A stretch of 37,897 bases of DNA from Reclinomonas americana ATCC 50394 (GCA_048213135.1 PS015028.1:405604-443500), one strand, 5' to 3'; numbered from the stretch's first letter, positions 1 to 35,600 are shown. The notes: generated from the sequence alone by a model not told the origin. Numbers and translations are program-made.

Positions 1-1999
1 ATCTTGCACTGTGCAAGCAAGATTCACGTGTCAGTGCCGCCTGCACACACAATTCAATTCACGCGTGTACGCACCCGAACGTCCGACGACGAGGCAATAG
101 TGGCCACCAGGCTCTTGCTGGACTCCGGTGGTTCTGGCGAGAGCGCGCGGCTGGCGGCGAGCACCTGCGAGCGACCAAGACCGTTTGGCGACTGCATCGG
201 TGACGGTGGCAGCTTGCTGAGGTCGGGCGAGAGGGGGATCTGTGGCGAGCGCAAGTGAGCTGCGCACGCACGCACGAAAGAAAAAGAGGATGCGATGTGC
301 CACTCACCGGTTCATCGTCAGGCGCACTCTGCCGAGCGGCCTCCTCTTCTGCGCGCTTCCACAGCTTCAGCAGCAAGTTGGTGGCACTGCACGTGTCCTT
401 TCGACTCCTCCAGTGACTGAAATCCTCCACAGCCTGCATCCGCGAAGCACGTCAGTATCGCTCAGACATCACACACGCGAATGGGAAAGGAGTGCCACGA
501 AACATGCGCATTGTTCAGCAGGTCGGCCAGACACGACAGGATAATGGGGTTAAGCGGCCGCACATCAGCATCCAGTGCATGCAGCAAGTGCGTCAATCCT
601 GCGAAACCGAGACAATCAGTCGACTGAGAAGAAGAGGAAGAGTGACGCAACGCACGCACCATCATGGTCGAAGAACATGGCCTCCGATTGTACTTGCCCG
701 ACCACGCAGTCCCACAAGGCGCCCACCAGCGCAATGCCATACTCGGCATCCGTGTGTCGATGGACTCTGTGGTGTGCACCCACCAGTCAGAGAACACAAG
801 GGTCGGGAAAAGCAGGCAAAACCAACTGCGCACTCTTTGATTCGCTTGACCAACGTTTCGATGCCGCCCGCCGAGCGGAAAATCGTGTACACCGAGGACG
901 AGGCGGCCTTGGCGGCCTGCACATTGTCAGCTTGGCAGAGGGCACTCAAAATGACCAGTAATCTGGTGCACAGCCACAGGCCGTTGTCGATGGAGGCGCG
1001 CGGGTCTTCCGATTCGAGGGTGTCTGTGTGGGGGGGGAGGTTGAGGAAAAGGGGGAAGGCGAGAGAGAGGAAAGGAAGACGGCGAAGAGAGGAGAGGGGG
1101 AAGGCGAGAGAGAGAGAGAAAAGGGGAAAGCGAAGGGAGCGGAGGGGGAGGACGAAGGAAAGCCACACAAGAGCTGAATGCAGAGACAAGGGACGAATGC
1201 ACAACTCAGATGAAACGAGCTGCGGCAAGAGAAAACACGAAATCAAGAAGAGCGACAGTTGCGGGTGGAATGGTTCGGGAAAGGAAATGACCGGACGGAT
1301 AAAGAGACAGAAATGCAGACAATCGAGCTGTTCAGGAGCAGAATGGACTAGAAAGGGGAAAGACAGTGGGAAAGGCAGAGGCCAGCGAGTGAACAGGTTG
1401 AAACAGACGCAAAGGCAACGAATGAGCGAAGAATTACAGGGCATGGTGACAGCGAAAGAAATGAAAGAAAATTGCACTGCGCCAAGAAGGCGTCTCAGTA
1501 CTCCTCCCCAACAAACCTATGCAAAACTCAATGATTCCAGACTCAATAACAACACGAATGTGCGGGCCGCCACGAGAGATGAACGAGACCAGCGCGTCAA
1601 CCTCCAAACGATACAGCACGGCATCCCGAGAGAGCGGTCGCGGAATGTGGCGGTGAACAGTGTCGCGCTGAACGACGGCGAGCAGGCGATCCGCGCATTG
1701 CAGCTCCGCACACACTTCACTCCAATTGGTGCCGGCACGACCGAGACATTGCAGGGCCTACGGCGGCGACCAATCAGACATGATCAAAGCTTTGCGGGAT
1801 GCGACGAATACAAAACGCGCACCATGGTCTGCAGTTCCTGCAACTGCGAGAATGTCCACTTGAGCCGCGGATGGATGCCTACGGGTGGTGAGCTTGTCAT
1901 CGGGAACAGGCGGGTGTCGATGTCGATATAGGTGAGCATGACTTGCAGGATGGCGTTCTGTGTGGAACACACACAGGAGCGCGTACATACACATTAACA

Positions 2000-2034
<35 letters not shown>

Positions 2035-5000
2035 GAAAGTGAGCGAAGGGCGACCGAGAGAGTGAGAGAGAGAGAGAGAGAGAAAACGTGGATGCATGCA
2101 AATGCCACGACAAAATCCACCTCCACAAAACCATGGTCTTGCCTCTCTCCCAACTCATCCCGATCTCCCNNNNNNNNNNNNNNNNNNNNNNNNNNNNNNN
2201 NNNNNNNNNNNNNNNNNNNNNNNNNNNNNNNNNNNNNNNNNNNNNNNNNNNNNNNNNNNNNNNNNNNNNNNNNNNNNNNNNNNNNNNNNNNNNNNNNNNN
2301 NNNNNNNNNNNNNNNNNNNNNNNNNNNNNNNNNNNNNNNNNNNNNNNNNNNNNNNNNNNNNNNNNNNNNNNNNNNNNNNNNNNNNNNNNNNNNNNNNNNN
2401 NNNNNNNNNNNNNNNNNNNNNNNNNNNNNNNNNNNNNNNNNNNNNNNNNNNNNNNNNNNNNNNNNNNNNNNNNNNNNNNNNNNNNNNNNNNNNNNNNNNN
2501 NNNNNNNNNNNNNNNNNNNNNNNNNNNNNNNNNNNNNNNNNNNNNNNNNNNNNNNNNNNNNNNNNNNNNNNNNNNNNNNNNNNNNNNNNNNNNNNNNNNN
2601 NNNNNNNNNNNNNNNNNNNNNNNNNNNNNNNNNNNNNNNNNNNNNNNNNNNNNNNNNNNNNNNNNNNNNNNNNNNNNNNNNNNNNNNNNNNNNNNNNNNN
2701 NNNNNNNNNNNNNNNNNNNNNNNNNNNNNNNNNNNNNNNNNNNNNNNNNNNNNNNNNNNNNNNNNNNNNNNNNNNGTTGAGCAGACTCAGTGCGCCAGAG
2801 TCGTCATTGGTGCCACACACATCCACGGCGTTCCACAGAATGTCAATGCACGAGGCGAACTCGGCGCTGCGAATGGACGAGCGATCCATCACCTCCAGCA
2901 CCGGATCCAGCAGCCCATCTGCGCGCGAGCAGTCAGACTCCGCAGAAAAAGAGGAGAGAAAGGCGCAGACACGTATGTGAGTGCGTAACATTCGCTGAGC
3001 TCCCTTGCCGGTTGTCGCCAATTGGAGAGGGCGGCCATGGCAGCCGTGACGGAGCGCGTCACGTGCGGCGAGCTGCCGCTGACATAGGGGCGTGAGAGGG
3101 CGGTGCCGACGGCGCGAGTCAGCGTGGTTTGGAAGAGGTTGGCGGGGGGCATGCCGATGCGGCCAGTGACACCAAAGAGCTTCGTCTGATTAGGAGAAGG
3201 GGGGATTAGGAGGAGAGAGTCAGAGTTAGGAAGGGATAAGAGGAGAAAAACACTCTTCGCATTCCTCGCACCTGCTGCAGCGCCAACGGCATCTTGTTCA
3301 ACAGTGAGAACGATGTTGGCGACGGCGGTCGATCCACATCCGTTTCCGCTGTGGCCGTGTCATCCACACCCGTGTACGTGGTGACGGCTGCGCCCTCCGT
3401 GCGCAACGCCGACGACAGCGATCGAATCAAGCACTTGTGCACGAGCAACTCTCGAATGCGCTGCGCCGTCACATCGTCGTCACGGCACTGCTCCAGCTCC
3501 CACACCAAGTGGAGCACACACTGCGCGGCGGCGTCTTGCACCGAGCTGTGGGGCGCCAGCAGCGCCACTGCGATGCAATCAAAGAGCAGAGCGTAGTCGC
3601 GTCCATAGGTCTCCCACTGCATGCATGCATGGTAAGCAAGAAGAGGGAAAGAGGGGAAGAAGGGAGGAAAGCAGCGCGCGCAACATCCGTGGCCAACTGT
3701 CGCACAGGCACGTGCGCCAGAGCCGCCAACAGACGAATGCCCGCCGCAAAGAACGTCTCCGCCAGGGCGCCGGCGGGAGAGTCGGGTGAATCCGCGCGCT
3801 GCGCTGCCGAGATGCCAAACTCCAGCGTGCGGTCGAGGAGCTGGCTGCAGGCGACCGAGTCGGAGAAGCACTGCGGAGGAGGGAAGGGAGTGAGGAGATG
3901 GGTGGAAGAGAGAGGAAAGGGTGGAAGTGCGCGAAGGGTGAATGGCCGGTGATAAGTGACGATGGGAGAATGGTGAGAATGATGGTGAGCAGATGATAGA
4001 ACGGCGAGAGACAGGAGGGATGCAGGAGCAGAATGCAAGGGAAATGGCGAGTAGAAGCAGGTGGAGGTGAGTGACAAGTGATAGAATGCCGAACAGACAG
4101 TGGGTGAGTGGCAGGAAGACCAGAGAAGAAGGCAAAATGGCAAAAGGAGGCGAGAGGAGGCAAGAAGAAGAGTGGAGGATGCGTGAAGGAGAGTGAGTGA
4201 GTGAGTGAGAGAGTGAGTGAGTGAGTGAGTGAGTGAGTGAGTGAGTGAGCGAGAGAGTGAGTGAGTGCGTGTGTGTGTGTGTGTGTGAGTGAGTGAGTGA
4301 GTGAGTGAGCGAGTGAGTGAGTGAGTGAGTGAGTGAGTNNNNNNNNNNNNNNNNNNNNNNNNNNNNNNNNNNNNNNNNNNNNNNNNNNNNNNNNNNNNNN
4401 NNNNNNNNNNNNNNNNNNNNNNNNNNNNNNNNNNNNNNNNNNNNNNNNNNNNNNNNNNNNNNNNNNNNNNNNNNNNNNNNNNNNNNNNNNNNNNNNNNNN
4501 NNNNNNNNNNNNNNNNNNNNNNNNNNNNNNNNNNNNNNNNNNNNNNNNNNNNNNNNNNNNNNNNNNNNNNNNNNNNNNNNNNNNNNNNNNNNNNNNNNNN
4601 NNNNNNNNNNNNNNNNNNNNNNNNNNNNNNNNNNNNNNNNNNNNNNNNNNNNNNNNNNNNNNNNNNNNNNNNNNNNNNNNNNNNNNNNNNNNNNNNNNNN
4701 NNNNNNNNNNNNNNNNNNNNNNNNNNNNNNNNNNNNNNNNNNNNNNNNNNNNNNNNNNNNNNNNNNNNNNNNNNNNNNNNNNNNNNNNNNNNNNNNNNNN
4801 NNNNNNNNNNNNNNNNNNNNNNNNNNNNNNNNNNNNNNNNNNNNNNNNNNNNNNNNNNNNNNNNNNNNNNNNNNNNNNNNNNNNNNNNNNNNNNNNNNNN
4901 NNNNNNNNNNNNNNNNNNNNNNNNNNNNNNNNNNNNNNNNNNNNNNNNNNNNNNNNNNNNNNNNNNNNNNNNNNNNNNNAGAGTGAGTGAGTGAGTGAGT

Positions 5001-5452
5001 GCAGTGAGTGAGTGAGTGAGTGAGTGAAAGAGTGAGTGAGTGAGTGAGTGAGTGAGTGAGTGACTGAGTGAGTGGGAGAGTGAGTGAGTGAGTGAGGGAG
5101 TGAATGAGTGTGTGAGTGAGAGAGTGAGTGAGTGAGTGAGTGAATGAGAGAAAGAGTGAGAGAGAGAGTGAGTGAGTGAGAGATTAGTCGACACCTAAGC
5201 CAATCATCCATCCGCATCACTCTCTCTCTCTCTCTCTCTTACAAGCCTCACCAGTGCAGCAACATCACGTCGCACAAGTCCTTGCATGGCGGCGGCCTCA
5301 TCGACGCCCGCGGCGACGGACGATTGCCGCCGTCGCAGCGCCGTCATGAGGAAGCGATCGAGGGCGGAAATGAGCCGTTGAGCGCCCTGCGCGCTCTCCT
5401 TGAGAGAGGCGGCGGCGGAGGAGGACCAGAGCGCGAGGCAGTCGTCGCTCAT
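1..5452 (-). CDS. CFAP69: Cilia- and flagella-associated protein 69 (ARM-repeat central-apparatus protein), multi-exon; 3' end beyond the window, two gaps inside
   Basis: Hand-spliced exons with compatible phases: 5452-5243, 3870-3685, 3616-~3272, ~3185-2990, 2918-gap, 1957-~1824, 1757-~1517, ~1023-834, ~769-663, ~597-504, 433-~309, ~259-~76. Motifs GLVRRDVAALVRL, VPVRQLATDWETY, CIDILWNAV, KWTFSQLQELQTMALQCL, LLVILSALCQ, ALWDCVVGQVQSEAMFFDHDGLTHLLHAL and HWRSRKDTCSATNLLLKLWKRAEEE are collinear with what I recall of CFAP69 (e.g. W..AQ..ELQ, SIWCCILG..SEDYF..EG, AASLLIKLWRKEE). Confidence 0.8.
4191..5181. repeat. (GAGT)n/(GT)n microsatellite block spanning an assembly gap, in CFAP69 intron 1
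   Basis: Directly visible tetranucleotide runs on both sides of gap 4339-4979. Confidence 0.95.
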
Positions 5453-7962: not shown

Positions 7963-10409
7963 ATGGGCCTCGACAGTGAACGACTGGTCGCGCCAGTCGA
8001 TGAAGTGAGTTGACGCATACACTTACACGCACCTCCCACCTACAGAGGCAGTGTGCGAGAGACAAAGCGAGAGAAAGAGATAAGAGAGTTGCAGTTGTGT
8101 CCTATATTTGGCCACCACCACCCGCCACTCACATTTTTTTGCGAAAGGATTTCATGTGCTGCGTCTGCAAAGGCGTGCTGCAACCGGACACCACTCGTGT
8201 GTGCCCACACTGTGAGCACATGTACGACGAGGCGTGTGTCAATGCATGGTGAGCGCGAAATGATTGAAGGAGAAATCCGACAACTTGCTGACAGGTTGCG
8301 TTTTCTAGGCTCGCAAATCACAACACTTGCCCGCTGTGTCGAGAGCGGCTGACCAAGGACCGATGTTGCGCGTCTCTCACTGGCCTTGTGTCTCCTCTTC
8401 TTCTCTGCCTCTGTGCACTCGCTCACACTCTTCCGCTTTCGAGTCGATCTCTCTCCTCCCCTCTCTGCCCGCCAGCTGCCTAGCCCCCCCTGTGGTCGAT
8501 ACCCTATTGGTCCTTGTCCTTACCCTCATCATAACCCCGTTGCCCAGGCTGTCTCTTCCTGTGATCGCTTTTAATCACTCTCCTGACCTAGTCCTCCTGT
8601 CATCCTTCTCCCTTTCCCTTCCCCTTGTACCTCCCCCTTCCCCCTTCCTCACCCTTCCCCCTTTCCCTCCTCCCCTCCTCCAGTGGTCCTCCCACAACGC
8701 GCCATCCGCCAAGTCCTCTGCAAAGTCCAAGTCTTCTGCGTGTTCCGCGAGGAGGGATGCGCCAAGCAAGTCTCCCTCGGCGACGTGCAGGCCCACGAGA
8801 GCTCGTGTGAGGTATGCTCTCCCTTTTCTCTCTATCTCTCTTTTCACCCTCACCTCACGTCCTCCAAATAGTTTCGACCCATCACCTGCCCGCAATGCTC
8901 GGCCTCGATGCTCTCCTTCCAGCTCGACGCGCACGTGACTGACGAGTGCCCCGAGGGTCGCACGCAATGCACGGGCGGCTGCGGGGCAGAGATGACGCGC
9001 CGCGAGCTGCTCTCGTCGCACTCGTGCGTGGAGACGCTGCTGGCCGTCAATCGTGAGCTGTCGGCCGAGTTGCAGCGCGCACGGACGGCGTTGCAGGCGG
9101 CGCGCGATCATCACGCTTCGGTGAAGCAGGTGCGCCGCGAGAAGCAGCAGGCGGAGGCGACGATGCGGGCGGAGCGAGCGACGCACCGATGCACGGAGGA
9201 GGCGCTGCGGGAGGCGCGCGAGGAGGTGCAGCGACTGCGTCGCCGAGTGGACGAGCTGGAGGGTGCGAGGAGGGCGGTGGAGGTTCCCGCGGCGAGTGCA
9301 GAGGAGGAGCCGCGGCCAGTGGTGGAGCCGGCTGAAGAGGAGGAGGAGCAGGAGGAGGAGGAGCAGGAGGAAGAAGATAGTGCCGCCAGTGGCAGCGGAA
9401 GCGGGAGCGGCAGTGGCGCTGCAGCAGTGAGCCTGGTGGCCGGTGCAGGCAGCGCCGAACATGCGGCACTCATTCTTGCCCGCTTGCATGAACTGCAGGT
9501 AAGGAATCGCATCATCACAGCACTTCTCCCTCTGCTCTGCTTTCTGTCTCTCCACACAGCACTTTGTTGCTTTCCCGTATGATTCTTTCGTCGTTCGCGA
9601 TGCAATCACTCTCTCGGAAGAAGCGGACAGAGCGATTGTCTTGCGTGTCGCTCCTGATGGCGTCGAGTACTTTTCTTCCTTTTTCTCGTATCGCGTCACG
9701 ACGTGTTCGCGTCGATTCCCTCTGCTCCCCGTCCACCACGGTGGTGGACCGTTGTGCGCTCCATTGGGCCACGCTGCTCATTCGTCCCCTGTCGTCCGAT
9801 ATTCGATTTTTGTATTTGATTGCTCTCTCTTTCACTCTCTCTCTCTCTCTCGTCACTCTCACTCTCACTCACTCTCAGCGCGGCGGTTGTGGAGGAGCAC
9901 GTTGCACGCGTGATTATACTGCGCCGATATACTGCGGCATCGCGCAGTCTTCGCCACGTTCCTCTTTCGCGTGATGCCTTTTTATGTGCGAATTGAATGT
10001 TCTCTCCTTTCGCAACGGTCGAATAATCACTCTCCGCTCTCTCGCTCTCTCTCCCTCCGTCTGCTGTGCACTCCTGCACCGAAGCGTGGCGTCCGTGATT
10101 AGTACGTGATGCACGCGCCGCCCGCGCCAGTGGTGGCACGGTGCTCACCAATGTGCCCGTATTTCGCTCTCACTCCGCCCGGTTTTTTTTTCGCGATGCG
10201 CAGGTGGCCGAGGCCATTGTGACGGAGCAGCGTCTGGGCGCGCGCGCAGTGGAGCGGCAAGTGCACGTGGACGTGCAGCGCAGCGATCTCACGCGCAGTT
10301 TCCGTCAACCCAAGCACTCGCTTCCGGGTCGCCAACAAGCAGGTCGTCGTCGCGTTTGAATGAGGCGAGGCTTACTTTTTTTTCGTTGTCGGTAGACAGC
10401 AACAAGTAA
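7963..10409 (+). CDS. RING finger + TRAF/SIAH-type zinc finger + coiled-coil E3 ligase, NRDP1(RNF41)/PDZRN3/RNF151-like N-terminus
   Basis: Exons 7963-8004, 8148-8248, 8309-8364, 8684-8811 and 8872-9498 splice to MGLDSERLVAPVDEDFMCCVCKGVLQPDTTRVCPHCEHMYDEACVNAWLANHNTCPLCRERL...CVFREEGCAKQVSLGDVQAHESSCEFRPITCPQC...CTGGCGAEMTRRELLSSHSC, then a coiled coil. Further phase-compatible exons at 9560-9666, 9879-~9985, ~10103-10152 and 10204-10297. The 3' end (TAA 10407-10409) is uncertain. Confidence 0.85.
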
Positions 10410-11835: not shown

Positions 11836-14800
11836 TCATCGCATCAAGAGCACCGTGGAGACATCGGTGGTGCCGGCGGGCATCTCGCGAGCGACGATCG
11901 ACGCGATGAACACGGCCAGGCAGGGCACGACCGCGAAACGACCTGCATCATGCAGGCGCGAGGGTTAGTGACGTTGTGGCGGCCACTTTCTGCCTCACAC
12001 ACACAACGCGTGTGGTGTGTGGCAGCGACGACTCACCGAGCATGGCGGCCAGACAGATGGAGATGAGGCCGGCACCACTGTGTGCGGCCACATGGGTCCA
12101 CAACTGGGCACCGCTGGACACACTGCATTGATATTCGCCGACGTCAGCAAACGGGAGGCACACGCCCAGATCGCGCCAAACAGAGTGCGGACGCGAGAAT
12201 CTTGTACAAGGGGAGAGACGTGCAACGCGTGCAGTGGGCGCGTCACGATTTCAACGGCTAGAGACGCGCGCGGGCGAGTAGGAGTGGCCGCCACCGAAGC
12301 AGCAGCAGCAGATAGAACGAAAGAAGATCAGCTATCAGAGCAGTACTACTGACGTCGCGGAACACAGCTGGAAGCGAACGCCCCTCAGCCACACAACAAT
12401 CACAGACCGGGTGTCAGACAGGAGTGTGTGTGTGAAAACTCGCTAACTAGACAACTGACACACAGTTTGCAGACAGGAGTGAGGCAAGTGGCGGTGCTCG
12501 TATCCACAAAACAGGAAGAGATGAATCTCGAAACACCACACGCAGGCACAGTAGGAGGAGAATTGGCGGCGGCGGCTGCCAGCCACGAGGCGTGCCACCA
12601 CCCGGAGTTTTGTTGGCGGCCATTTCCCGCGCTCGCTTACCTTGCTCCCGGCGACAGCACGTAAAACGGGATCACAACCGTGGGTACGCACATCAGCAGC
12701 GTGCCAACGAGGGACCGCACGGAGCCCATCAGTACGCCACGTAGGCGGCTGCGTTGTACGGCATTGGCCGCCGCGTTGTGCATCACCACGCGAAGGTAAC
12801 CGCGGAAGGCGCCCCACGGCAGCGCGACCATGGCGGTCATTGACAGGAGGCTGACAACGTTGAAGATGAAGAGGCGATGCTCGACCCACGACAGCGCCGG
12901 CAGCGCGGTGCCTGATTGATGAAAATGACGTTTAGCAATTCGACACTGACGAGGTCATGAACAGTACTCTTCTTCCCGCGCACCATCACGCTTGGCGCCG
13001 GCAATGTTGTTAAAGTGCGACACAGCGTACGAGAGTATCTCGCCATTCACCGGCAGCCGTGGCTTGACAGCGGGGTCACAACACCGTGCGATCTCGTCCA
13101 AATATCTCGCTGTCGGCGCCGCCTGGTTGACCAGTGCGGTGATGCCATTTGCTGGTGGCAGAGTGCGGAGGCATGAGTGGGACGAATGAGGGAGGCGAGA
13201 GGCGAGAGGCGAGGGATGAGAAAGTACCGAAAAACGCCAGATTGTCGACAAAGCCGACACTGTAGTTGTGCACCGAGTCGTCGCTGTACTCGGACTTGGA
13301 GTGCGCGTGCTCGAGTGGCAGCAGGCGGAGTGCCTGCTCCAGGACGGAAACGGGGAGGAAAGAAGAGCGTGATTCTGAGGGAGGAGAGGGTGAGGGAGAG
13401 GGAGAGGTAGAGGAGTGGGGAAGGAGTGGGAGTGCGACGCAACGGTGATTGGTGAGGGATTCCATGAGGCGCCACGCGGCGACGTAGGTGGGGCGGTCAA
13501 AGGAGACGAGGGAGCGTACAATGGCGCTGGTGTTGACGTGTTCCCACACGACGCGGGCGTCGGTGGCTAAAGAGGGGGAAGGGTGAGGGGGGAAAGGGGG
13601 GAAGGGGGGGAGAGGGGAAAGGGGGGAAGGGGGGGAGAGGGGAGAGGGGGAAAGGGGGGGAAAGGGGAAGGAGAGGGGAAGGAGANNNNNNNNNNNNNNN
13701 NNNNNNNNNNNNNNNNNNNNNNNNNNNNNNNNNNNNNNNNNNNNNNNNNNNNNNNNNNNNNNNNNNNNNNNNNNNNNNNNNNNNNNNNNNNNNNNNNNNN
13801 NNNNNNNNNNNNNNNNNNNNNNNNNNNNNNNNNNNNNNNNNNNNNNNNNNNNNNNNNNNNNNNNNNNNNNNNNNNNNNNNNNNNNNNNNNNNNNNNNNNN
13901 NNNNNNNNNNNNNNNNNNNNNNNNNNNNNNNNNNNNNNNNNNNNNNNNNNNNNNNNNNNNNNNNNNNNNNNNNNNNNNNNNNNNNNNNNNNNNNNNNNNN
14001 NNNNNNNNNNNNNNNNNNNNNNNNNNNNNNNNNNNNNNNNNNNNNNNNNNNNNNNNNNNNNNNNNNNNNNNNNNNNNNNNNNNNNNNNNNNNNNNNNNNN
14101 NNNNNNNNNNNNNNNNNNNNNNNNNNNNNNNNNNNNNNNNNNNNNNNNNNNNNNNNNNNNNNNNNNNNNNNNNNNNNNNNNNNNNNNNNNNNNNNNNNNN
14201 NNNNNNNNNNNNNNNNNNNNNNNNNNNNNNNNNNNNNNNNNNNNNNNNNNNNNNNNNNNNNNNNNNNNNNNNNNNNNNNNNNNNNNNNNNNNNNNNNNNN
14301 NNNNNNNNNNNNNNNNNNNNNNNNNNNNNNNNNNNNNNNNNNNNNNNNNNNNNNNNNNNNNNNNNNNNNNNNNNNNNNNNNNNNNNNNNNNNNNNNNNNN
14401 NNNNNNNNNNNNNNNNNNNNNNNNNNNNNNNNNNNNNNNNNNNNNNNNNNNNNNNNNNNNNNNNNNNNNNNNNNNNNNNNNNNNNNNNNNNNNNNNNNNN
14501 NNNNNNNNAGGAGAGGAAGAGAAGAGAAAAAGCACAGAAGAACGGAGGGAAGAGAAGCAGGGGGAGAGAAGCGGAACCCACACGGGGTGCCAAGTGAGCA
14601 GCGGAAGGCAACAGAGACGACGTGGAGAAAGGAGAGAAATGAAGACTTGCAAGACTGAGAAGATGGAGCCAACAACCGAGCGGCACAACGAGCTCTTTGT
14701 CTTTCTGCCCCACTGTCTCCCTCCTCCCACTCACCCTTCTGACACAACACCACCAAGAAATTCAGCGCTCCGGCTCTCGCCGCCGGATCTAGCGAATCGA

Positions 14801-16022
14801 GCGACGCATTCACAACACGGAACGTAGAAGCCAGTGATTTAGGGGCCAGCAAAATGTGCCGTGCTTGCACTGTGCGCGCGCGAACGATGAGTGGGGGAGC
14901 TTGCTCTTCCTTACAGAGGGGCGTGCAAGCAACTGCGCTCGGCGGCCGAGGCCAACTCGGCCCAGTCCTCCGACATGAAACTGACGGGATGATGGCTGTC
15001 CGCATCTCCTTTCGCGTCCGCGGTGGCCGCGGACAGCGGTACAACAGATTCGGCCAACTGCGCCGAGTTCCACACGGGGAAATTGATGCCTGTTGACGGT
15101 GGTGTCTGCTCCTTCTGTTGCTGCTGCTGCTGCTGCTGCTGTTGTTGTTCGCGTTCCTGCCGAGCCTTCTCCGCACTGCTCAGACTCGTTTCGTGTCGGT
15201 GCTGAATGGCGATGCGACGCAGCAGTAGCTCGAGTCGTTTTCGCTCTGGAGATGTCGCAAGAGGAAGACGGGGAAGAGGGAGAGAGAGATGAGAAAAAGA
15301 CAGGGAGTGACGACATGGCGAGTCAGATAGAAGGCAGCGAAGGCCTGAGTATGGCAACGAAACGAAGCGACATCACAACAAGGCCAAGGTAGGGTGGGCG
15401 AGACAGAGCGCGTGAGGGGAGTCAGATAGAAGGCAGCAATGTGTCACAGAATACAGCAACGAGAGGAAGCGCAAGATAGGGAGGGCGAGACAGCGCGTGA
15501 GAAAACATAAATCGGAGTCTCTCAGAGATATGAGCAGCACAGATGAACCACAGAAGAAGGACTGAAGGAGTGGCGGGTGAGACAAACAGGCGAACATAAT
15601 ACAGACACCAGGAAGAGTGAGCGAGAGGGAGGGACAGAGTGCAAGCAACGAGCTCAACACAGTCTCAACAGAGAAACGCAACTGGCCGCCTCATGCTCAT
15701 CATACACCAAATACCCGCAGAATCCCAGCCACGACAGCGGCAACGTGAGTCGCAACACGCGGTCTACACAAGCATCCTCCAGTCAGCATCGACTGCACAC
15801 GCCGAGAGGATACAGCTTATTACGAGACACAACTGAGCACAGTTCCGGCATTGGCGGCAAACCACGACGACGACGACGAGGAAGACTGAGGCCGATGGAC
15901 GGATTTCGGAGAGTTGGGAGAGATGCGAGCACGAGTCGACGATCCAACGCCCACTCTGCCACGCAATGTATTGATGAGGACCGTGCGCAGAAACCGAACA
16001 CAGGGTGCGAGTGAGAGGGAGG

Positions 16023-20110: not shown

Positions 20111-20173
<63 letters not shown>

Positions 20174-22315
20174 CCTCTCCCTCTCTGCTCTTCCCCCCTT
20201 TGCTCTGCTCTTCTCTCTCTTCGCTCCGCTCTTCCTCTTTGTTCTGCTCTTCTCTCTCTTCGCTCTGCTCTTCCCTATTTGCTCTGCTCTTCTCTCTCTT
20301 CGCTCTGCTATTCCTCTTCGCTCCGCTCTTCGTCCCTTCGCTCTGCTCTTCGTCCCTTCGCTCTGCTCCTACTCCCTTCGCTCTGCTCTTCCCCCCTTTG
20401 CTCTACTCTTTCCCCCTTTCCCCTAACCCCTTTTTCCCCTCCCGCAGAGCATCTCGCGCGTGGCCCTCGGCTACTCAAACTCCCAGAAGGGACTCGTCGA
20501 ACACTGCGAGGGCGGCTTCCCCACCGGCGACGGCGCCTGTCTCGTCGGCTGCGCCGCGGGTCTCCTGTACCGTGATTTGTCGGGCGATTTGCACTTTGTT
20601 GATCCGACCACACTGCGTCGTCTCTCGGCGACACCCATTGCCGCCGACAGCCTGCGCAACAAGGCCGGACAGCCCATTCACGATGCGCGCGCAGCACCGA
20701 TGACCTCGGACGGCGTCTTTGTGTATGTGGTCGACCATGAGGACACGGTGGAAGGTTTCCATTTCGCCGTGCACCAGTTCCTGGCCGTCGGCACTGCGCA
20801 GCTGGAGTGCGTGCGATCAGTGTCGTTGCGCTCGCCGCAAGTGTTTTCCGAGCTCGGTGAGCACAATCCACTATCTCTCTATCTTCCCCCTGTTTGTTGC
20901 ACTCACGCAGCACCGTGGTGCGCAGAGCTGTACAGCCGATGCACGCGCGACTGGACGCGCGACGTGTACGTCAATCAGATTGATTTCACGTGCGCCGAGT
21001 GTGCCACCGATCCGTCGTGGTGTGTGTGCGCAGGTGAGAGAGAGTACGAGTTTTGGGTTCCGCCCACCTGCTGTTTGTGCTGATTCTCGCGCCGGTTAGC
21101 CTGCGCCCGCATGTGCCATGCAGAAAAGGGACACCACGTGCAGCTGAAGCGCTGGGGCAACTCATACTGCGACTGCCGTGATTGCGGATCGTGCGGATGT
21201 GCGCGCCCGGGACTGGAGGACCGCGAATGTTGCGTGTTTATGAATGCCTTGTTTTGTTTCGTCACTCACTGTTGCTCGCCGCCGCAGTCGGCAATGTGCG
21301 TGCTGTTGGCACCGGTGGCCGCGAGGCTGCTCTCCGCGGCAACATGACGCTGGAGAAGCTCATCTTCACGCCGCACTGCGTGCGCTCGCTGTATGTGCGC
21401 GAAAACTTTGGCATGTATCTGTTTGACGACGGCCTGCTGTACACGTGCGGCCTGAATGTGCACGCATTGCACGGCTTCCCCGCCGGCTTTGCCGATCGTA
21501 CCGACGACCGCAAGCAACTGCTGGCCATTATCGGCTTGCGTGACAACACTTTCACGTCGTTTGTCGTCTCGGAGAACGCCGCTTTTGCCCTGGCTGTGAG
21601 CAGTTGCGTCGTCTGTGCCATTAACTCTTGGTTCACCTTCTCACACATCGCACAGCCGACGGTGTGGTGTATGCGTGGGGCGACAGTGATTTGGGCCGTG
21701 GACTTGGACCGGGAGCGAAGCCGCATCCCCAACCAGTGGCCTCGCTCATGCACACGCTGATCACCAGCGTGGCAGCCGGCAAGACCCACTCGTTTGCGCT
21801 GTCGGGTTTGTTTTTTCTTTTTGTTCGTCGCTTGTGTTCCACACAAAACTGATGCATGTTTTTTGCTGCTCGCAGTGGACGGCACGCTGTACGTCACCGG
21901 TGACAACTTGAACAACCGCCTGGGTGCGGCCGCTGGAGCGCCGGGCCAGTTGCAGACGTTTGTGCGCTGCGAGGCACTGGCCGGCGAGCGCGTGGTCCAC
22001 ATTACGCCGCACCTGGTCCTCACTGGTGCGTATTATGGTGTCTTTTCGTGTCGTGAACTTCTTGTGAGTCGCTCACTGCCGACTGTGTCGACAGCCTCGG
22101 GCCGCGTCTTTGTGTTTGACGCGCAAGTGGCCGCGCAGTATGAGGTGCAGCCGGCTGCCGGTGCCTCGGCTGCAGCCGGACCATTCGTGCTCGACACGGA
22201 TGGGCAGAATATTGTGGACATGGCGGCGACCACCAGCAATGTGCTGCTTGTCACTGGTGAGTTGGTGGAATGGGGAAGGAATGGAGAAGAGGGAGGGGTG
22301 GAGTGAGAGAGAGAA

Positions 22316-22347
<32 letters not shown>

Positions 22348-23538
22348 CAGAGGGAGAAGCGGAAGAAGAAAGAAGAAGAGTAACAAATAGAAAAAGAAGA
22401 AGAGAGACTGCAATCTTCCTCTGTTCTCCTCCCGCTCCTCCTCCCCTTCCCGTCCTATCTCTCTCTCGCTTCGAGATTGACTGCTTGGCAATCTCCCTCT
22501 GTTCTCCTTCCTTTCCTCCTTCTCCTTCCCTTCCCCTCCTTCTCCTTCCCCTTCGTATTCCCCTTCTTATTCTCCTTCTCGGGCAGCCGACCGCCGCCTC
22601 ATGGTCGCCGGCTTGAACGCAATGGGCGAGCTGGGTGTCGACGACGCCAACCCAGTGAAGAAGGCCAAGTTGAACGAGCTGGCTCAAGACCACCGCATCT
22701 CCCGTGTGTGGGCACTGCCGCAGTGGTGCGCCTACCAGACCGACACGAAGGAGTTCTACTACATGGGCACGAGCGGCTTCGACATGACCAGCCGCAAGCC
22801 ACTGCTGTCCCCGCTGCTCAGCGGCCGTGCCCTTCGCAGCCTCGGTACCACGCCGACTGCGTTGTACACTGTGCAAGGTACCGCACTCGTGCACGCGCCG
22901 TTCTCTTTCTTCTCTGACGATTGTTATTTACTGGCCTTTTCAGACTTGGAGGGTCCGGGCTTCCCGATCAACACCATCTCGCAGTTGAGCTTCTTCACCG
23001 ACGGACGCCACCTGAACGTGCTCGTGCCGCCTGGCGTGCTGCCGAATGACTCGCCACTGCCGATTACCTGGTCGTTCTCGCTGGTCGACGGTTTCCATCC
23101 GGCCGATCGCAAACACGGCGTGCAGCCCATGCGTTGCGTGTGTTACTCTCTGCCATTTCTCGCCAACTGTTGCTGATGTACACATTCGGTGTGCGGCGGA
23201 GCAGTGTCCGGCAGCTCGGTGTCCTACTCAATCTCCCACAGCGTGGCGCTGTGTTTCAGTGCCGAGGACTCTCGCGTGTGGTTCTCTTCTTCAGTGCCCT
23301 CGAGTCCCCGCGATCCCAAGTTGGCGCCGCCGCTCATCCGCTCGTCGTTCAACAAGCCCTTCCAGACAGCAAGCAGCACGAATGAGGTGTGGAAGCGGAA
23401 GAAATTGATTTTGCTCTTTCTCTTCTGCTCTTTTGTCGTTGTTTTCTCTGCTGTTTCTCTTTCTCTCTCTCACACACACGCACATTTTGATTTTGCTCAT
23501 TCTCGTCCACTCTTTTGTCGTTGTTCTCTGTGTGTGTC

Positions 23539-23578: not shown

Positions 23579-26500
23579 ATCTCGCTTGCTTTCCTTCTCA
23601 TGACGTTATTCTCCGTTGCCCTCCTTCATCTTCCCTCCTTCATATTTCCCCTCCTTCGCCCCTCCTTCCCCCTTTTGCGCAGGTCCCCGCACTCCCCTCG
23701 ATGCTTTGCATTGGCGACGTGGACCTGGTCCCGCTGCTCCGCGCCGTGTGCACCATGCAGGAGACGACGACGACGTTTGAGATTTCCGCGCACCAGTTTT
23801 CGTCGCTGCTGGTGGCCGACACGATGAAGCGAGGTTGGCCGCCATTCATTTCCCCCTGTTCTTCTCCCTCGTCTTCCCAGCGCTCACTGCTCGGGTTCTT
23901 TCTTATGTACAGCCTTGACTGCGATGGCGCACAGCCGCGCCAACGAGACCGCCTTCCGCACGTTCACCGAGCGGTGCTTGGAGTTGACGCCGGCCTCGCT
24001 GGACATGCAACTGTTGACGCTGCGCGACGTCTGGCGACGCCTGAGCGAGTGTGGTTTGTAGATACTGATTGCGGTGCCGGTTAATGCCATCGTGTTTCTC
24101 ATTTTTGCGTCGTGCAGGATCCGGTGCACAGAGCGCCTTTGACGTGCTGCTGTTCAACATGGTCATCATGTGCCTCACGCTGCACATTCGCGAGTTGAAC
24201 AAGAGCACACAAATGTCGGCGCCGCCACCAGGTGATTTTGTTGTACATGTGCTGTACCTTGCTTGATAAGTGTCGTAATGGCCGAATGCTCGTGCAGGCT
24301 TGTACACGGCTGACGGAGTCCGCAACCTGCGCGACTTGGTGCTTGACATTTTGCGCTTCTCCAACTCGTCGATTCGCGAGTCACTGCTGTGGGATTCCAT
24401 GCCGCGACTGTGCGACTTGCTCAGCGAGGGTTTCAAGCTGTTCTGGTCGTCGTTTGAGGAGCGCACGAGTTTCATTTTGGGTGTCATTTCCGAGGTACGG
24501 GTCGCGTGCATATGTCGCCACTTTCTTCCCTCCATATCTCACCAGCAATCACCTGTGCAGGGCCGCATGCGCTTCCCGCTGCACCACTCGTCGCTGCTGG
24601 CCGTGGTCATCAAGTTCCTCAACGCCTCCGACGACGCGGAGAGCCTGCTGGGTGCCGGTGGCGGTGCCTCGTCGCTCCTCCTGCGAGTTGGCGACACCAT
24701 TGTGGACTCGATGCTCGACAAGATCCGCCAGATCCAAGATCGCGGTGCGCAGTCGTGCTCCTCGTGTGTGCGTGCCACGTTGTGGTCACTGAATTGTTTT
24801 GTCTGCGTCGCAGGATCGTACGACGCCGAGCCGGCGGGTGCTTCCATGGACGGGTTTGTGGCCATTATCGTCAAGGACATGCTCCTCCGTCTGCGCGACT
24901 TGCTGCAAAAGGTGACTGTCGGTGTCTGATTGCCCGTTTATGTTGCCCTGATGCTCACCGTCACTTTTTTCTGCCTGCAGAGCCCGCCGACTGCACAGCT
25001 GCAAGTCTGCTCAACGTACTCGCTGCAGCGCACCGCAGAGGGTGACATCAAGGTCATTTCCTCGTCGCCAGCCTCGCTGGCCAAGTTCCACTTGACCGCG
25101 GGCGAGCCAGTGCGGGTGTGTGTGTCTGCTTTCAGTCTCTTTCTCATTTCTCCATTCGCCTGCTGACCGCCGACGATTGAACAGGTCCGCAAGCACAACA
25201 AGCGAGCCACTCTGGTCGGTGTGTGCGACGACATTCTGTGGATTCAGTACAGTGGCGAGGAGCATGTGTCGCCGATTTTGGATCCTTCGGAGATTGTCAG
25301 CCTGAAGGTGACGTGGTGTCCATATCTCACAGTTAGTGATGTGAAATCAGTGTCGCCCTGACTTGGTGCCGTGCAGGAGATTCGCAAGCCCGGCGTTGCT
25401 GCCGTGCCCGGCGAAGTCACCGAACTCGGTCTCTTCAAGTACCCGACACGCAGCAAGGCGCTGCAGGAGTTCGACATTTCGCCGCAGGCCATTGAGCCGT
25501 TTGGCTTTAAGCATGGCCAGCGTGTGAAGGTGTGCGGATCGTGTATTTTTCTGTCCTCTCTCTCTCTGTCCTCAATTCCGCCGTTTTCGCAGACGCCTTC
25601 CGGCTCCGTGTCGACGGTCATTGGCGTGCACAAGACACACTTGTGGTTCCACGTCGACGGAGAGGCCGGTGCTTCGTACTGGGCGTCGCTCAAGTCACCC
25701 GCGGACTTTGCCAGTCGCGGATTCGTGTTGGTCGAGGTGTGGTTTGTGGGAGTCGCAGAGTGTGTTCTTGGCTTCTCAATCACATTCTTTTCCACCGGGT
25801 GCAGCAGGCTGCCGCGGCCGCCGGTGAGGCAGGCGAGGCATCGTCGTCGTCAGCGGCAGCTGATGCCGCCGCGCCAACTTCTCCCGATGCCGCATCGTCG
25901 CCCATGGATACGGAGAAGAGCGACTGGAACCCCTACGTGGAGCCGCAAGAGTTCTTTGTGCGCGTGCTGGGCATCGTGAGCCACGTTCTCCGTCGTCTTG
26001 CCGATGCCACTGCGGCGCGACAGGCCTCGATTGGCAGTGGTGCCGGGTCGACTCAAGAGGTAAGTGCGACACTTTGCACAATTTCAATTGTGCGGGTGTG
26101 CTAATCCTGTTGTTTCTTGTGCACTCGGCAGCTGGAGCGCCTGCAAAGCGCCGTTTCAGCCATGCTGCGCGACTCACAGTTGTTGCACACGACGATGCAC
26201 GGCTTTATCAACTTTTTGTCGATCCAGGCCAGTCATCTGACCATGGATTTCTTGAAGCAGGTTCCGCACTGCTTGTTGTTCCTTGCCGCGGTTGACTGTT
26301 TCCTCTCCTCAACGCCACCTCTCTTTTGCGTGACAGTTTGTGCCGCACCTGTACTCGTTGCAACACGACTTGAAGGCGCTGCTCGACGCTCTGTACTCGT
26401 CACCCGATGGTGACTGGTGGCAGCAGCAGTCGGCGGCATCGTACACGCGCCCAGTGCTGGTCGAGACGCCGCATCCGTACCCCATGGCCTACACTGACAC

Positions 26501-29500
26501 TTTCAAGGTCCTCTTCGAGTGCACCCTTGCTTGTTCTCGTTCTCTCTCACTCACTCCTTGTCTCTCGCCGACAGGTGCACATTCCCAAGGCCTCGTTCCT
26601 GGAAGTGCGCTTCGATCCGCACTGTGTGACCATGGACGCCAACGATTTCCTGGTCATGTACTCGGACGTGGACAAGAAGCAGTTGGTGCTGCCGACTCTG
26701 TGGGGCGACATGTTCTCGCAGTCATTCCTGGTCCCCGGCGACACTATTGTGCGTCTGCCATGTTTATCACTCTCTCTTCCTGCCGCCTGCTGTTATCTCA
26801 CAGATTATCCTTTTCCCTTCCTTCCTTCCCGCTTCCCGCCCCAGGTGTTCGACTTCCACGCCGCGAGTGTGGACGAGGACTCGCGCAAGCGCTGGGGCTT
26901 CCGTGCGCACGTGACGGGTCACACTTCGGGCTCGCCACCGCCGCTGCTGGAGATGTACCGCGACCTGATTTCCCTGTGTTCCATTGTGGCCAGTCGCATG
27001 ATTGCCGGCGTGCCGTCGACCTACAACCTCGACAACGTCTTCAACACGGAAGTGTTTGAGGGCGGCTTGGAGGCACGCAATCTCGGCGAGACGCTGAGCC
27101 GCTCCGTGTTTGATTTCCAGAATGGCAATGGTTTGACTGGCGACATGGCACACTTCCCATCATCATCATGCGCGTAGTTTTTCACTTTTCTCCCTTCCAC
27201 GTCGCACAGCCGTGTCGGTAGAGATTCACGGCGAAGCCGGTGGCTCCTCCATCAACGACGAGCAGTTCCACTTCCTCAAGGATCTGGTGGCGGCCAGTGC
27301 GCCACGCCCGCCAGCTACCGGGGAGGATGGCTCCGTGCCCATCGAAGAGTCTGCCTCGAGCTACTTGCTGGCCAAGCTCATGGACATTGCCGGTGCGGAT
27401 TGATTGCCGTCCTCTGTTGGTGGTCTCCTTCTCTCACTCACACAGTCTAATATGTGCGCGGCTTCACAGAGGAGACGTGCCAAAAGGAACTGCAGGAGGC
27501 GCTGGCGACGAACGAGGTGCCGGAGCTGAGCCCGCAAACGCACGACTTGATGGAGCTGCTGCGCCGATGCGCGTTTGCCGGCTTGCTGAAGATTCACGAC
27601 GGCGGTCTGGAGGCGGCCATTGACTACGCCGCACACCTGATGACGCACCACGGCCATGCGCACGGCGACGAGCAGCAACCAGAACTGATTCGTCTGTGGG
27701 TGATTGCCAGCTCAGCGCGCGTGTGGGCCGTTGTCGATGCCGTGCAGCGCATCAAAGCGGAGGCGGACAAGGTATGCGGGTGTGACATTCCCTGGCACGC
27801 TTGCGGTCTCCCTTCTCACCTCCCATTGTGTAGGCCGAGTCGGATGTGGCCAAGGCCGCACTGCGCAGCAGCGAGAACTGGAGTGTGGTGCTCGGCACCA
27901 TTCTCAACGCCGACATTCGCAAGGCCGTCTTCTCGCTGGCGTTCCGCTCGCCCAAGGCCGACTCGAACCGCCTGGCCGACAAGGTCGACGACTATCTTGT
28001 CAGCCCGGTGTCGCCGCTGCCGCGCAACCCGTTCATGCCGCCCACTCCGGCTTTCGAATTGGGCGCGCAGTCGTCCAATCCGTTCCTCGATGAAGGTCTG
28101 TGCGAGAAGAAGAGAAAAAGGAAGTGGTGCGAAAAATCACTCACTCTTCCCTCGTGTTTGCGCGCAGCGTATGGCGGCGGTGAGCCGAGTGCGTCGGGAA
28201 GCAGCGACAAGTCACCGTCGGTTGACGGACTTGAGCGCACCTCGTCACTCGAACCGCCGAGTGGCGCGTACTCGGAGGTGTGGAAGCTGTGGCGTCACAA
28301 GGCGATGGCGGAGCGTGAGGCGCCGGAGAGTATCGGGTGGCGCGAGTTGGTGCGCCGGCACCACGAAGCCGAGGCGCTGTCGTCGGCGTTCTTGCGCTAC
28401 ATTCGACAGCCGTCCACGTTTTTCTCCACCGGTTTGGGTGCCACGGCTGAGAGTGTTGCATCGAGGAATCTCGAGGTTCGTGGAAGGGAAGGGGGTAGAG
28501 GGGAAAGGGGGCGGAGAAGGGAAGGGGATGGAGGTTAGGGAAAGGAGGAATGGTGCGACGTAGGGGAGAAGGGAGAGAGGCGTGTAGTTCGCTGCCGTGA
28601 GTTATGTTGTCATAGATTGCAGAGTGGGGAGAAACAAAATGCGAGATTTAGCGCGACGGCAGGAGAGAAGGATTGAAAAACGAGGCAGGTCGCTCCCAGT
28701 TTTGAGTTCGATTGTAAGGGACGAGTGACAGAAGACAGGAGAAGTGGGAAGAGTTTGACTGGCTGTCCACGTCATCCATAAGGATTGACAAATGTCGTGC
28801 CTGGTTGTTTTCTCGTCAACAACTCATTCTGTTGAGGGTTAAGTGCAAGACACGACGAGATTGAGCTGGATAAGATCTCAGCAAAGAAGTCGCAAGCGTG
28901 AAAGGAGAGAGCATTCACGTTGGAAAGAAAGTGAGACACGTGTAGGAAGAGATATGAGAGAAACAAATGCCAGACATCGTGTGCTATGATTTCGCGCGTC
29001 ACTCTTCTCTCCGCTCATCTCGCCTCTCCCCCGCCCACAGGAGCTGATGAAGCAACCCATCAACGAGGCTCTCTACACTCTTGTCCGCGAACGTCGCGAC
29101 AACGCCGTGATGCGCCTGCAGGGCTACAAGCTGCTGTGCTCCGTGCTGGAGGACTGCGCTGTCGACGGCGAGAGTGAGCACACGGTCATGTACCACTACG
29201 TGCGTGCGATTCACGACGAGAAGAAGGCCGCCGATGATCAGATGAAGGGCGTGCTGGCCGGCGACGATGCGTGGGCCTACCTCAACGTGGCGCCGTTCAG
29301 CAAGCACTTTTTGGAGGATTTGTGGGGTTGCGGCCGTGTGCTGTCGGAGTTGATTGAGAACGAAGTCTCGCGGCTCTACACCAATGTGGTGGGCGTGCTG
29401 AAAGCCACGGTTACCACGTCGCCCCAGCCGACGGAGGAGGATGCGTTGCGTAGAAAAAGGGGGGGGGGGGAGGGTTATTGAGAAGGAAAGGAAGATGAAG

Positions 29501-29538
29501 GGAAATAGGAAACACACACAGAGAGAGAGAGAGAGAGA

Positions 29539-29623
<85 letters not shown>

Positions 29624-32600: not shown

Positions 32601-35600
32601 ATGTGGCGTTGGTGAGTCGGGATGAGATGCACAGCGCCTGGTTTTGTCTCCACTTCCAAACTCACTCCTCTCCTCAATAGGCTCGCGACCGTTTGCGCCG
32701 CGTGCACCGCCTCAGTCAGGAGCACGGCATGGGCGTCGACAAGGTGCTCCGACTGGTCGGTCGCGCCATGGCTGCGCATGCTGACGAGGAGGGCGAGGAT
32801 GATCCCATTTTCAATGCCGGTGTGGTCGACGCCATTGTCTGGCTGCAGTGCGCCGAGGTGCTCATGCAGGCCGGCTTTGACGCGAATCTGGCGTGCGCCG
32901 CCGCCGCCGAGTGCAAGGGTGGCATTGAGCAGGCCTTCGAGGCGGTGCTGGTGCAGAACCAGGCGGTGGCGAGTTTGGCCAGCGAGTTGGAGATTCAGCA
33001 GACGCGGGAGTTGTCGGAGGAGATGTTCTTCCCGCAGCCGGCGGCGGAGTCGGATCAGGCGAGTCTCGATGCGCTGATTGCCGATGGGTATTGCCAGGCG
33101 TTGGTGGACAAGGCGTTTGAGGTGAGGGAAGGGGTAAAGGGGGAAAGGGGGAAGGGGGTAAAGGGGGAAGGGGGAAGGGGGTGCAGGGAAAGAGAAGAGA
33201 AAGAGAGGGTGTTTGTGTTGATTTTGTCATTGTGTGCAGTGTTGTAGCGGGTGTGTGTATATGTGTGTGCGAGTGATAGACAGCGTATGAGATTCTAGCT
33301 ACCGTCATCTTCATTGTCACGAATCCCCTCCTGTCTGTGAACTCTTTCTGTGTTTGTACGAGTGAGGAAATGAGTGAGCGCGTGTGGTTTGTGTTTGTTT
33401 GTGTTCGTGTAGGTAGTCTGCTGAGACTCAATTCCTGCATCTTCATTCTCTCGACTCTCCACTTTCATCAGATTCATCGTTGTACTTCCTCCATGGAGGT
33501 TGAGTGATTTTCTTGTCAAACGTGCTCGCTCTCTCTCTCTCTGTCAATTTGTGTATGTGTGTTGGGGGAGTTCTGCGGGCGAGAGAAGAGAGAGAGAGCG
33601 CGCGTGTGAGTTTATCTCTTTCACTTCAATTCTCATTTCTCCTCTTTCTTGAACTCATTGCTGTGTTTCCACAACGATGCTTGTGTGCAGTGCTTAATGA
33701 GTGCGTTTGTGAGTGAGAGAGAGCGTTGAGTTATGATGGAATGAGCAGCAAGAGAAATTGCGGTGCAGTTCGGTGCAGTGAGACAACCCAAGATACCTCA
33801 CACGGACGTACAAGCACCTGTGCGGCAGAGCCGATTGTTAACTTTCCTCTATCCCTTTCTTTACGCCTGCCAGATCAACGAGCGCAATGTGGAGCGCACC
33901 GCCCGCTGGCTCGAGGAGGAGGGACTGAAGGGCAAGCACCAGGCGGCACGCATCACCCAGGCGCTGGCCCTCAAGAGCAACCTCGGCTACCCGTTCAACT
34001 TGGCGCTGATCGCTATTATTCAGAGCAACGGCAATGTGGACATGGCCGCCAACGTGCTGATGGAGCAGTACGACGAGTTGATGGGCAAGCTGGCGGAGGA
34101 GAAGGCACGTCTCGAGGACCCGGCGGCGCTGGCCGCCGAAGAGGGTCGCCAACCGGCTGCGCACGCACTGGCGGTGATTGAGGCGGAGAAGTTTGAGGAG
34201 AAGATTGTTGCGTGACAACCCTGTGTCTATATTTGCCAATCCCTTTCACTGACTCGCTCGGCGCGCAGAAATACGAGCACGTGCCGGAGGAGATTGCGAT
34301 CCTGTCGGACGAGGCGTACGACTTTGAGCTGCTGTCGCTGGTGTGCACGGTGGCCGGCACGCGCGCTGGTGCACACTTCCTCGGCAAGAGTCTGCGCATC
34401 AAGACCATCCTCTCCGCGTTCGTGTACGGTCCGTCGGATCGGTGTCAGAGAGTGGCGTTGTTCACGTTGCGCCGTGTGCTGCGCCGCACGCCGGTGGAGA
34501 CCACGCAGACGGCGATGAAGTTCTTCAGAAAGGAGCAAGGTTGGAAAAGGGAGAAGGGTGTAGTGTCACGCCTTCTTTCCCCCCTTTAGTTTTTGATCGT
34601 CTCTATTGCAGGCGACTCGGACATCTCCAGCGAGACGGAGGTGTTTGATTTCCTGCTCGGGTGCGTGGCCAAGGCGTTCGAGGTCGAGGTGAAGGACTTT
34701 AGGCATGATTCGCGCGGTGCGCGACAGGTGAAGCTCGATCGCTGGTCGCCGGTGCTGGACGACGTGGCGGTGAAGAAGGAGGTGGTCGACGAGTTGGTCG
34801 CCAATCTGCGTGTGCTGGTCACGGCGGAGCAGTGGGCGGATCTGGCGCAGCGGGCGCTGGTGCAGCATGTGACGCGCACGGCCATGGCAGCGGCGTCGGA
34901 GGATACGCGGCGTGGTGATCGTGCGCTGGGTCTCGGTGCAGCGGCGGTGGCGGTTGTTGGTGGGTGGACAAGGGGAGAAGGAGGGCAAAAGGGAGAAGGG
35001 AAGGGGAGAAGGAGGAGGGAAAGGGAGAAGGGGGGCGTAAGGGGACGATGCATGATGCGTTGTGTGTGAATGACAGAGATGTACTCTGCGTGTGGCATAC
35101 GTTTAGATGGAGATGTCAGATTGCTGCGACGCATGATGCGTTGTGTGCGAATGACAGAGATGTACACTGCGTGTGGAATACGTTTAGATGGAGATGTCAG
35201 ATTGCTGCGACGCATGATGCGTTGTGTGCGAATGACAGAGATGTACTCTGCGTGTGGCATACGTTTAGATTGAGATGTCAGATTGCTGCGACGCATGATG
35301 CGTTGTGTGTGAATGACAGAGATGTACATTGCGTGTGGCATACGTTTAGATGGAGATGTCAGCTTGTTGTACAGGTTATTGACAACAATAGAATGGTTGT
35401 AGGCACGGACGAGGAGAGGCGTGCGAGAATTGCTCGCTTCTTAGAGAGATCGCGAGCGTCGATTCATGTCAGAGTAATGTTTCTTTGTTTTTCTTGTCAC
35501 ATCTTGTTATCTCTCTAGAGTTTTCCATTCGACACTTTGCATGCTGTGTGGACTCGATTCGTGTCTGTTTTCTCTCTCTCTCTCAGGCTTCTTTCTCTTA

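Follow-up and report, generated by a model that had tools for sequence, protein, structure and literature searches.

Pairing of U1 small nuclear RNA (snRNA) with a splice donor one position away from the usual alignment has so far been described for a few human sites, each proven singly. Shifted-register 5' splice sites, with GUUAAGU as an example, were reportedly described by Roca and Krainer in 2009. The donors considered here carry an extra T after the initial GT, most often in the form GTTGCG, and recur in a window of 37.9 kilobases (kb; the whole stretch of DNA analysed) from Reclinomonas americana ATCC 50394, which consists of intron-rich eukaryotic DNA with 8 gaps of N. The class was defined by T at +3 and G at +6, with a base other than G at +5. 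The reading favoured here, at a probability of roughly 0.6, is that its members belong to ordinary U2-type introns, the extra-U donors of which would be read by U1 and U6 in a pairing offset by one base.

Two registers, the shifted one and one with a U at +2/+3 bulged out, are both given as experimentally proven in human by Tan et al. 2016 (PMC4856993). The paper also tabulates the predictions of Roca et al. 2012, according to which the +2/+3 bulge register applies to 54 of 201,541 human donors and the +3 bulge to 36, and puts all validated noncanonical registers together at 1.5% of donors. The donors of the present window resemble the human bulge +2/+3 sites in having U at +2 and +3 and a base other than G at +5 (14 of 14), and the consensus returns once one U is removed. 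Whereas the human sites are rare, the class accounts here for 8 of 53 junctions scored without a donor motif, and for as many as 12 supported sites in the 38 kb; the class is furthermore tied to exons without a final G, which the bulge register does not predict. With the shifted-register sites the class shares that all pairs would be moved by one position, such that the first intron base (G+1) would come to lie opposite the U1 base that usually pairs with the exon's final G (G-1), and this gives a reason for the occurrence of the class where -1 is not G. However, shifted sites are a rare curiosity in human, the -1 base is here mostly T, which is unpaired when shifted, and the core is GCG instead of AAG.

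A further comparison is offered by the seesaw described by Parker et al. 2022 (PMC9803359), in which any base is allowed at +5 if -1 is G, and any base at -1 if +5 is G, with the two classes AG//GU and //GURAG. The window as a whole conforms to it, as 29 donors combine G at -1 with G at +5, 7 have G at -1 without G at +5, and 7 have G at +5 after a base other than G. Ten of the 53 donors lack both Gs, which is the disfavoured combination; 8 of these 10 are of the +3U/+6G class and fit the seesaw after a one-base shift. All 14 donors of the class proposed in a first-pass annotation of the window lack both Gs as well. Like U12-type introns, the class is a distinct minority of donors within one genome. 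The literature searched, with the two original Roca papers and all supplements outside its coverage, reports no lineage in which such donors are common. The register itself is known; its frequency, its uniformity and the link to the -1 base are rated as new.

Placement of the motif and the last exon base

All 14 motifs proposed were found again at their positions and strands (Table 1), the last exon base is indeed never G among them (7 T, 4 A, 3 C), and the recurrence claimed for the class is borne out by its presence in all four main genes. Taken alone, GTTGCG shows no enrichment across the window (31 matches, both strands counted, versus 29.5 expected from shuffles), so that its placement is what matters. 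The sense strands of the gene spans contain 18 copies. Nine of them read GTTGCGT, comprising seven proposed donors, two intronic copies (651 and 8295) and no exonic one. In the other nine the motif is followed by A, C or G; these comprise two proposed donors, one copy in intron 1 (17619) and six exonic copies. The copies at 17619 and 651 were considered as additional members of the class and rejected, the donors favoured there being T/GTGTGC at 17586 and G/GTGCGT at 659, respectively (here and below, a slash marks the exon-intron boundary).

Donor use was predicted from gene models scored without any donor motif, not from transcripts. For each junction, an in-frame codon was anchored in each flanking exon and every frame-keeping pair of GT and AG was listed; each pair was scored by codon log-odds together with an acceptor matrix and a prior on intron length, the latter two trained on 29 short canonical introns. 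These introns have a narrow length mode (54-94 nucleotides (nt), mean 69, standard deviation 8), such that length discriminates between rival donors. The exon anchors came from the analysis's own predictor. The whole-gene predictors, donor-neutral and matrix-trained, were noisy, with spurious tiny exons in long introns and small exons of the RING gene missed, and were used solely to propose exons and frames.

Concerning the -1 base, 53 junctions with exons of 60 nt or more on both sides were evaluated by their motif-free posteriors, the exons having been proposed by a donor-neutral predictor with a length-aware intron score. Among the top calls, 8 class members and 9 other donors follow a base other than G, whereas 1 class member and 35 other donors follow G (Fisher p = 2.0e-4). 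At the 35 junctions with a posterior of at least 0.85, the respective numbers are 7 and 2 after non-G and 1 and 25 after G (p = 4e-5). Among all sense GT sites, the class pattern is about equally frequent after non-G (81 of 1739, 4.7%) and after G (16 of 385, 4.2%), and base composition therefore fails to explain the link. Weighted by posterior, donors after G amount to 27.1 with G at +5, 0.9 of the class and 6.8 others, versus 6.5, 7.3 and 4.4, respectively, after non-G. One of the eight class calls, at 1816, is probably not a member; a canonical G/GTGCGC is situated in phase 6 nt upstream of it.

Two statements of the first-pass annotation have to be modified in this respect. The strict confinement of the class to donors after a base other than G overstates the case, with G/GTTCCG at 26261 as a likely exception. 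The estimate of roughly two thirds of the non-G donors changes to 8 of 17 in the motif-free set, and to 7 of 9 at high confidence.

The donor at 26261 shares with two others that it follows G and has G at +6 instead of +5, with an apparent extra C (G/GTACCG at 22878, G/GTGACGTG at 25308 and G/GTTCCG at 26261). These three may represent a second kind of one-base offset, with a bulge near +4/+5, at a frequency (3 of 7) that is not clearly above chance.

Donor profile and individual junctions

The characterization of the class as ordinary donors with an extra T agrees with its base profile, in which T is found at +3 in 14 of 14, G at +6 in 13 of 14 and T at +7 in 11 of 14 members. Displaced by one base, the downstream positions correspond to those of the donors with G at +5: G is found at +4 in 12 of 14 (at +3 in 25 of 36 donors with +5 G), C at +5 in 12 of 14 (at +4 in 12 of 36), T at +7 in 11 of 14 (at +6 in 14 of 36; p = 0.025) and G at +8 in 8 of 14 (at +7 in 15 of 36). 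Apart from their donors, the introns of the class look like ordinary U2-type GT-AG introns. The short ones measure 53-72 nt and thus lie inside the canonical length mode, and a branch-like YTNAY motif is situated 12-28 nt before the acceptor in all nine of them, versus 20 of 24 canonical introns (in the intron at 2989, CTGAC occurs 14 nt upstream of the acceptor). An origin as mobile 'introner' copies was rejected, the nine introns sharing nothing past the donor when compared by eye. U12-type donors have the consensus RTATCCTT; none of the 14 donors resembles it, and branch-like motifs and acceptors are as in ordinary introns, so the class was not assigned to that type.

The very narrow length mode and the strong branch-like and acceptor signals of the short introns would also suit donors that are real but weak and work without offset pairing. 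A strong branch site and acceptor might then define each short intron as one unit, or the donor might be bound by a protein or by U6/U5 alone, and the GTTGCG bias would have some other cause. Donors with G at neither +5 nor +6 do exist in the window (G/GTCCTC at 26508, G/GTGATT at 24232 and G/GTACTT at 13227), the GCG bias of the class is stronger than that of ordinary donors, and its -1 base fits both offset registers poorly. These G-less weak donors all follow G, however, whereas the class follows non-G, and tolerance of weak sites predicts neither that one motif should be ten times as frequent as among background GT sites nor the strong T at +7; this explanation is judged unlikely.

The class is also unusually uniform, with GTTGCG in 9 of 14 and GTTGCGT in 7 members, and this uniformity would fit a dedicated variant of U1 (in its 5' end) or U6 (in its ACAGAGA box) snRNA that matches GUUGCGU directly. 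A frequency far above that of the human offset registers (54 of 201,541 donors for the +2/+3 bulge, as tabulated in PMC4856993) would fit it too. Yet GTTGAGT, GTTGTGT, GTTACG and GTTTCG track the variants of ordinary donors, which suits one flexible snRNA better. The 5' end of U1 is moreover very widely conserved, and we regard a dedicated variant as quite improbable.

At the level of single junctions, the proposed donor has the top motif-free posterior at 9 of 13 junctions (0.68-1.0), and 7 of the 13 lack any in-phase GT with G at +5. By the gene models, use of the donor proposed in the first-pass annotation is supported at 12 of the 14 sites, ambiguous at 15833 and unsupported at 13443. The rivals compare as follows: at 503, the GTGTGT at 476 implies an intron of 43 nt; at 3684, the in-phase cct/GTGCGA at 3705 (89-nt intron) scores 0.009; at 19517, neither GTGCAG at 19522, which needs the acceptor at 20450, nor G/GTCAAG at 19553 exceeds 0.005; at 21229, the in-phase gat/GTGCGC at 21199 (89 nt) reaches 0.05; and at 34207, the sole other GT (34174, GTGATT) would remove 11 coding residues. 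Higher values are attained at 15682 by the GT at 15677 with acceptor 15243 (0.24), and at 23133 by tgt/GTTACT at 23142 (0.30).

Two junctions can be checked against protein domains. At 21603, the sole other GT (21615) implies an intron of 41 nt, and the textbook GTGAGC at 21596, claimed to be skipped, indeed has no in-phase solution; the exon downstream (21658-21804) covers positions 1-50 of 50 of the RCC1 profile. At 8365, the motif-free score favours 8338, the use of which would delete the last Cys of CPLC and thereby cut the final Cys pair of the RING finger. The preceding exon (8148-8249) spans positions 2-33 of 44 of the zf-RING_2 profile and the next exon must therefore bring this pair, so that the predicted domain supports 8365 over 8338. 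As for 29445, joining it in phase 2 to three exons of a contig that is probably inverted (see below) gives 0 stops in 490 amino acids (aa), versus 9 stops with the GT at 29450.

The donor-neutral predictors make evident errors elsewhere in the window, and the models were built without transcripts. Much of the class might thus be an artefact of gene modelling, the true donors being the GT at +6, an in-phase GTGCG upstream, or a non-GT site. GTTGCGT always holds a second GT at +6, in another phase, a rival donor that had been missed in the first-pass annotation and that is still viable at 15682 and 13443; furthermore, in-phase rivals with G at +5 exist at 3684, 21229, 503, 13443, 19517 and 23133. 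As the true donor in general, the +6 GT was rejected: it fails phase at 21603, 34207, 21229, 23133 and 29445, while 3684 and 8365 have no GT at +6 in the first place. The 7 of 13 junctions without an in-phase +5 G donor and the domain checks at 21603 and 8365 also oppose an artefact, and random mispicks should place the class at about 5% of the donors after non-G, not at 47%. An artefact on this scale is held to be very unlikely. The matrix-trained predictor abandoned the donors at 21603, 23133, 2989, 8365, 13443 and 29445, which indicates how easily annotation goes wrong at such sites, and likewise that other donors are available on paper. Gene finders with a single matrix penalise such donors, and annotations of this genome may be systematically wrong at these junctions.

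At 15827-15833 (minus strand), GTT/GTGTCT forms tandem donors 3 nt apart, both in phase, which could give rise to two isoforms that differ by one residue.

Table 1. Positions of the proposed +3T donors, of two further donor-like sites and of the main genes (posteriors are motif-free; acceptor positions are given under Intron)
Feature	Boundary or motif	Position	Strand	Gene	Intron	Posterior	Remarks
Donor	cat/GTTTCGT	497..503	-	gene 1	70 nt to 433	0.98	
Donor	aat/GTTACGC	2983..2989	-	gene 1	71 nt to 2918	1.0	no in-phase GT with +5 G
Donor	gat/GTTGCGC	3678..3684	-	gene 1	68 nt to 3616	0.97	
Donor	gat/GTTGCGC	8365..8371	+	RING/TRAF gene	319 nt to 8684	0.17	0.83 for 8338; no in-phase +5 G donor
Claimed donor	acc/GTTGCGT	13437..13443	-	gene 3		0.002	unsupported
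Donor	gca/GTTGCTT	14927..14933	-	gene 3	64 nt to 14869	1.0	sole in-phase donor; no +6 G
Donor	cca/GTTGCGT	15676..15682	-	gene 3	437 nt to 15245	0.74	
Donor	tca/GTTGTGT	15827..15833	-	gene 3		0.43	0.57 for 15830 GTGTCT, 3 nt downstream
Donor	aat/GTTGAGT	19517..19523	+	MYCBP2-like gene	931 nt to 20448	0.96	
Donor	aat/GTTGCGT	21229..21235	+		59 nt to 21288	0.90	
Donor	gca/GTTGCGT	21603..21609	+		53 nt to 21656	0.94	
Donor	tgc/GTTGCGT	23133..23139	+		to 23205 or 23295	0.68	summed posterior
Donor	tgc/GTTGCGT	29445..29451	+		long, entering N gap		supported by phase
Donor	att/GTTGCGT	34207..34213	+		62 nt to 34269	1.0	
+3T/+6G donor after G	cag/GTTCCGC	26261..26267	+		76 nt	0.88	
Unused site	GTGAGC	21596..21601	+				7 nt upstream of 21603 donor; no in-phase GT...AG solution
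Gene 1		about 57-5452	-				
RING/TRAF zinc-finger gene		7974-10350	+				zf-TRAF match in exon 8872-9498; RING profiles in exon 8148-8249
Gene 3		about 11839-16400	-				
Very large MYCBP2-like gene		17414 to window end	+				RING exon 36094-36636 and RCC1 repeats

Pairing registers

In the mechanism proposed, the extra U after GU would put the usual +5 G at +6 and the usual +6 U at +7, and the class would replace the +5 G donor where the exon ends in a base other than G. U1 snRNA, and later U6, would pair one nucleotide out of register. In the shifted register, G+1 of the intron would fill the slot of the exonic G-1; in the alternative bulge register, one U of +2/+3 would loop out. The normal alignment leaves these donors without both recognition Gs; a move by one base would regain a G opposite the U1 and the U6 cytosine. 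On this model the class sites would be actual sites of splicing and would be recognised by the offset pairing.

Counted against the canonical U1 5' end, from which that of the host may differ, all 14 donors form more pairs when shifted (5-8) than in the canonical register (3-5). At -2, where C should be preferred by the shifted register, the exons have C in 5 and A in 6 of the 14 cases, and at four sites CA/GTTG, when read shifted, resembles the exon consensus CAG/. The -1 rule leans to the shifted register, because a G at -1 would return U1 to the canonical register, in which the G at +6 would be useless; after G, the motif would therefore not be kept by selection. At a little under even odds, the offset register would be routine and selected, serving about half of the donors of exons without a final G and at least a tenth of the introns, hundreds of times the human frequency; the strict link to non-G would then mean either a shifted register, with G+1 read as G-1, or the action of a dedicated U1 or U6 variant.

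Several points weigh against offset pairing as the explanation of the class. All counts are drawn from one 38-kb window, the codon model derives from a single gene, and the priors for acceptor and length derive from introns that had been chosen for G at -1 and at +5. The in-phase GTGCG rivals at 3684 and 21229 lose on intron length and coding score alone. The donor claimed at 13443 gives way to better ones, namely att/GTACGC at 13519 (0.41) and the GT at +6 of the motif itself (13438), and that claimed at 15833 is in a near-tie with the donor 3 nt away, neither of the two having G at +5. The 16 long relatives retrieved with the RING exon (see below) match the window in tblastn only from 34287 on, apart from one hit in the inverted contig, and cover no claimed junction.

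Some further difficulties concern the pairing itself. Nearest-neighbour energies of the donors with the U1 5' end (duplexfold) are near zero and uninformative, and the GCG bias, i.e., the prevalence of C at +5, exceeds that of ordinary donors and is not predicted by a plain extra T. The shifted register should prefer A at -1, yet T, which pairs in neither register, is found in 7 of 14 cases. The bulge register should benefit from G at -1, yet this occurs in 0 of 14, and the class makes up 1 of 36 donors after G versus 8 of 17 after non-G. Neither register cleanly accounts for the -1 rule.

If the offset pairing of the class is true, a genome with common, uniform and rule-bound offset sites would constitute a natural test bed for a one-base slip of U1 and, above all, of U6, and would also reveal what sets the cleavage point under such a slip.

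Genes and further features of the window

The RING exon of the large gene retrieves RCR-type E3 ligases of the MYCBP2/Highwire family. An exhaustive search with this exon yielded 1423 relatives, the nearest named ones being scattered (a nematode, ticks, and the stramenopiles Platysulcus and Cantina) at about 50% identity. Word-index protein searches for homologues covering the junctions found nothing. A metagenome scan gave 7 loci of 38-47% identity, which were unused in the analysis. Within the window, Rfam at gathering thresholds reported no family and no snRNA gene.

The contig at 30396-31945 is bounded by two N gaps (30071-30395 and 31946-32343). Its coding strand is the minus strand, although it carries on the MYCBP2-like gene of the plus strand. 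Exon 29041-29444 followed by 31814-31619, 31553-31323 and 31255-30616 yields the uninterrupted 490 aa mentioned above; after these exons, the phase suits an acceptor at 32384/32385 (sequence read by eye), and a distant homologue matches 31505-31386 on the minus strand. Judged from these coding features, the contig is probably in the wrong orientation within the scaffold.

The spacer that separates gene 1 from the RING gene contains inverted repeats in a nested arrangement (33-104 nt, 95-98% complementarity) at 5690-5978 and 6790-7625, on either side of an N gap, with a direct duplication of 215 nt on the left side. They resemble either mobile-element ends or a palindromic feature of the assembly. 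Within intron 1 of the large gene, a unit of about 250-280 bp is repeated in tandem at 17952-18487, with at least two copies that are 86-95% identical; ARAGORN detected no tRNA in it.

The long introns at 22257-22586, 19517-20447, 28477-29040 and 29445-30070 are purine-rich in their 5' half (GA and GAGT repeats) and pyrimidine-rich (CT) in their 3' half. The intron at 22257-22586 is predicted to form one end-to-end hairpin of -131.7 kcal/mol, a value just modestly better than those of shuffles (z -1.81; 5 of 100 shuffles as good). Such purine and pyrimidine halves could draw the splice sites of long introns together.

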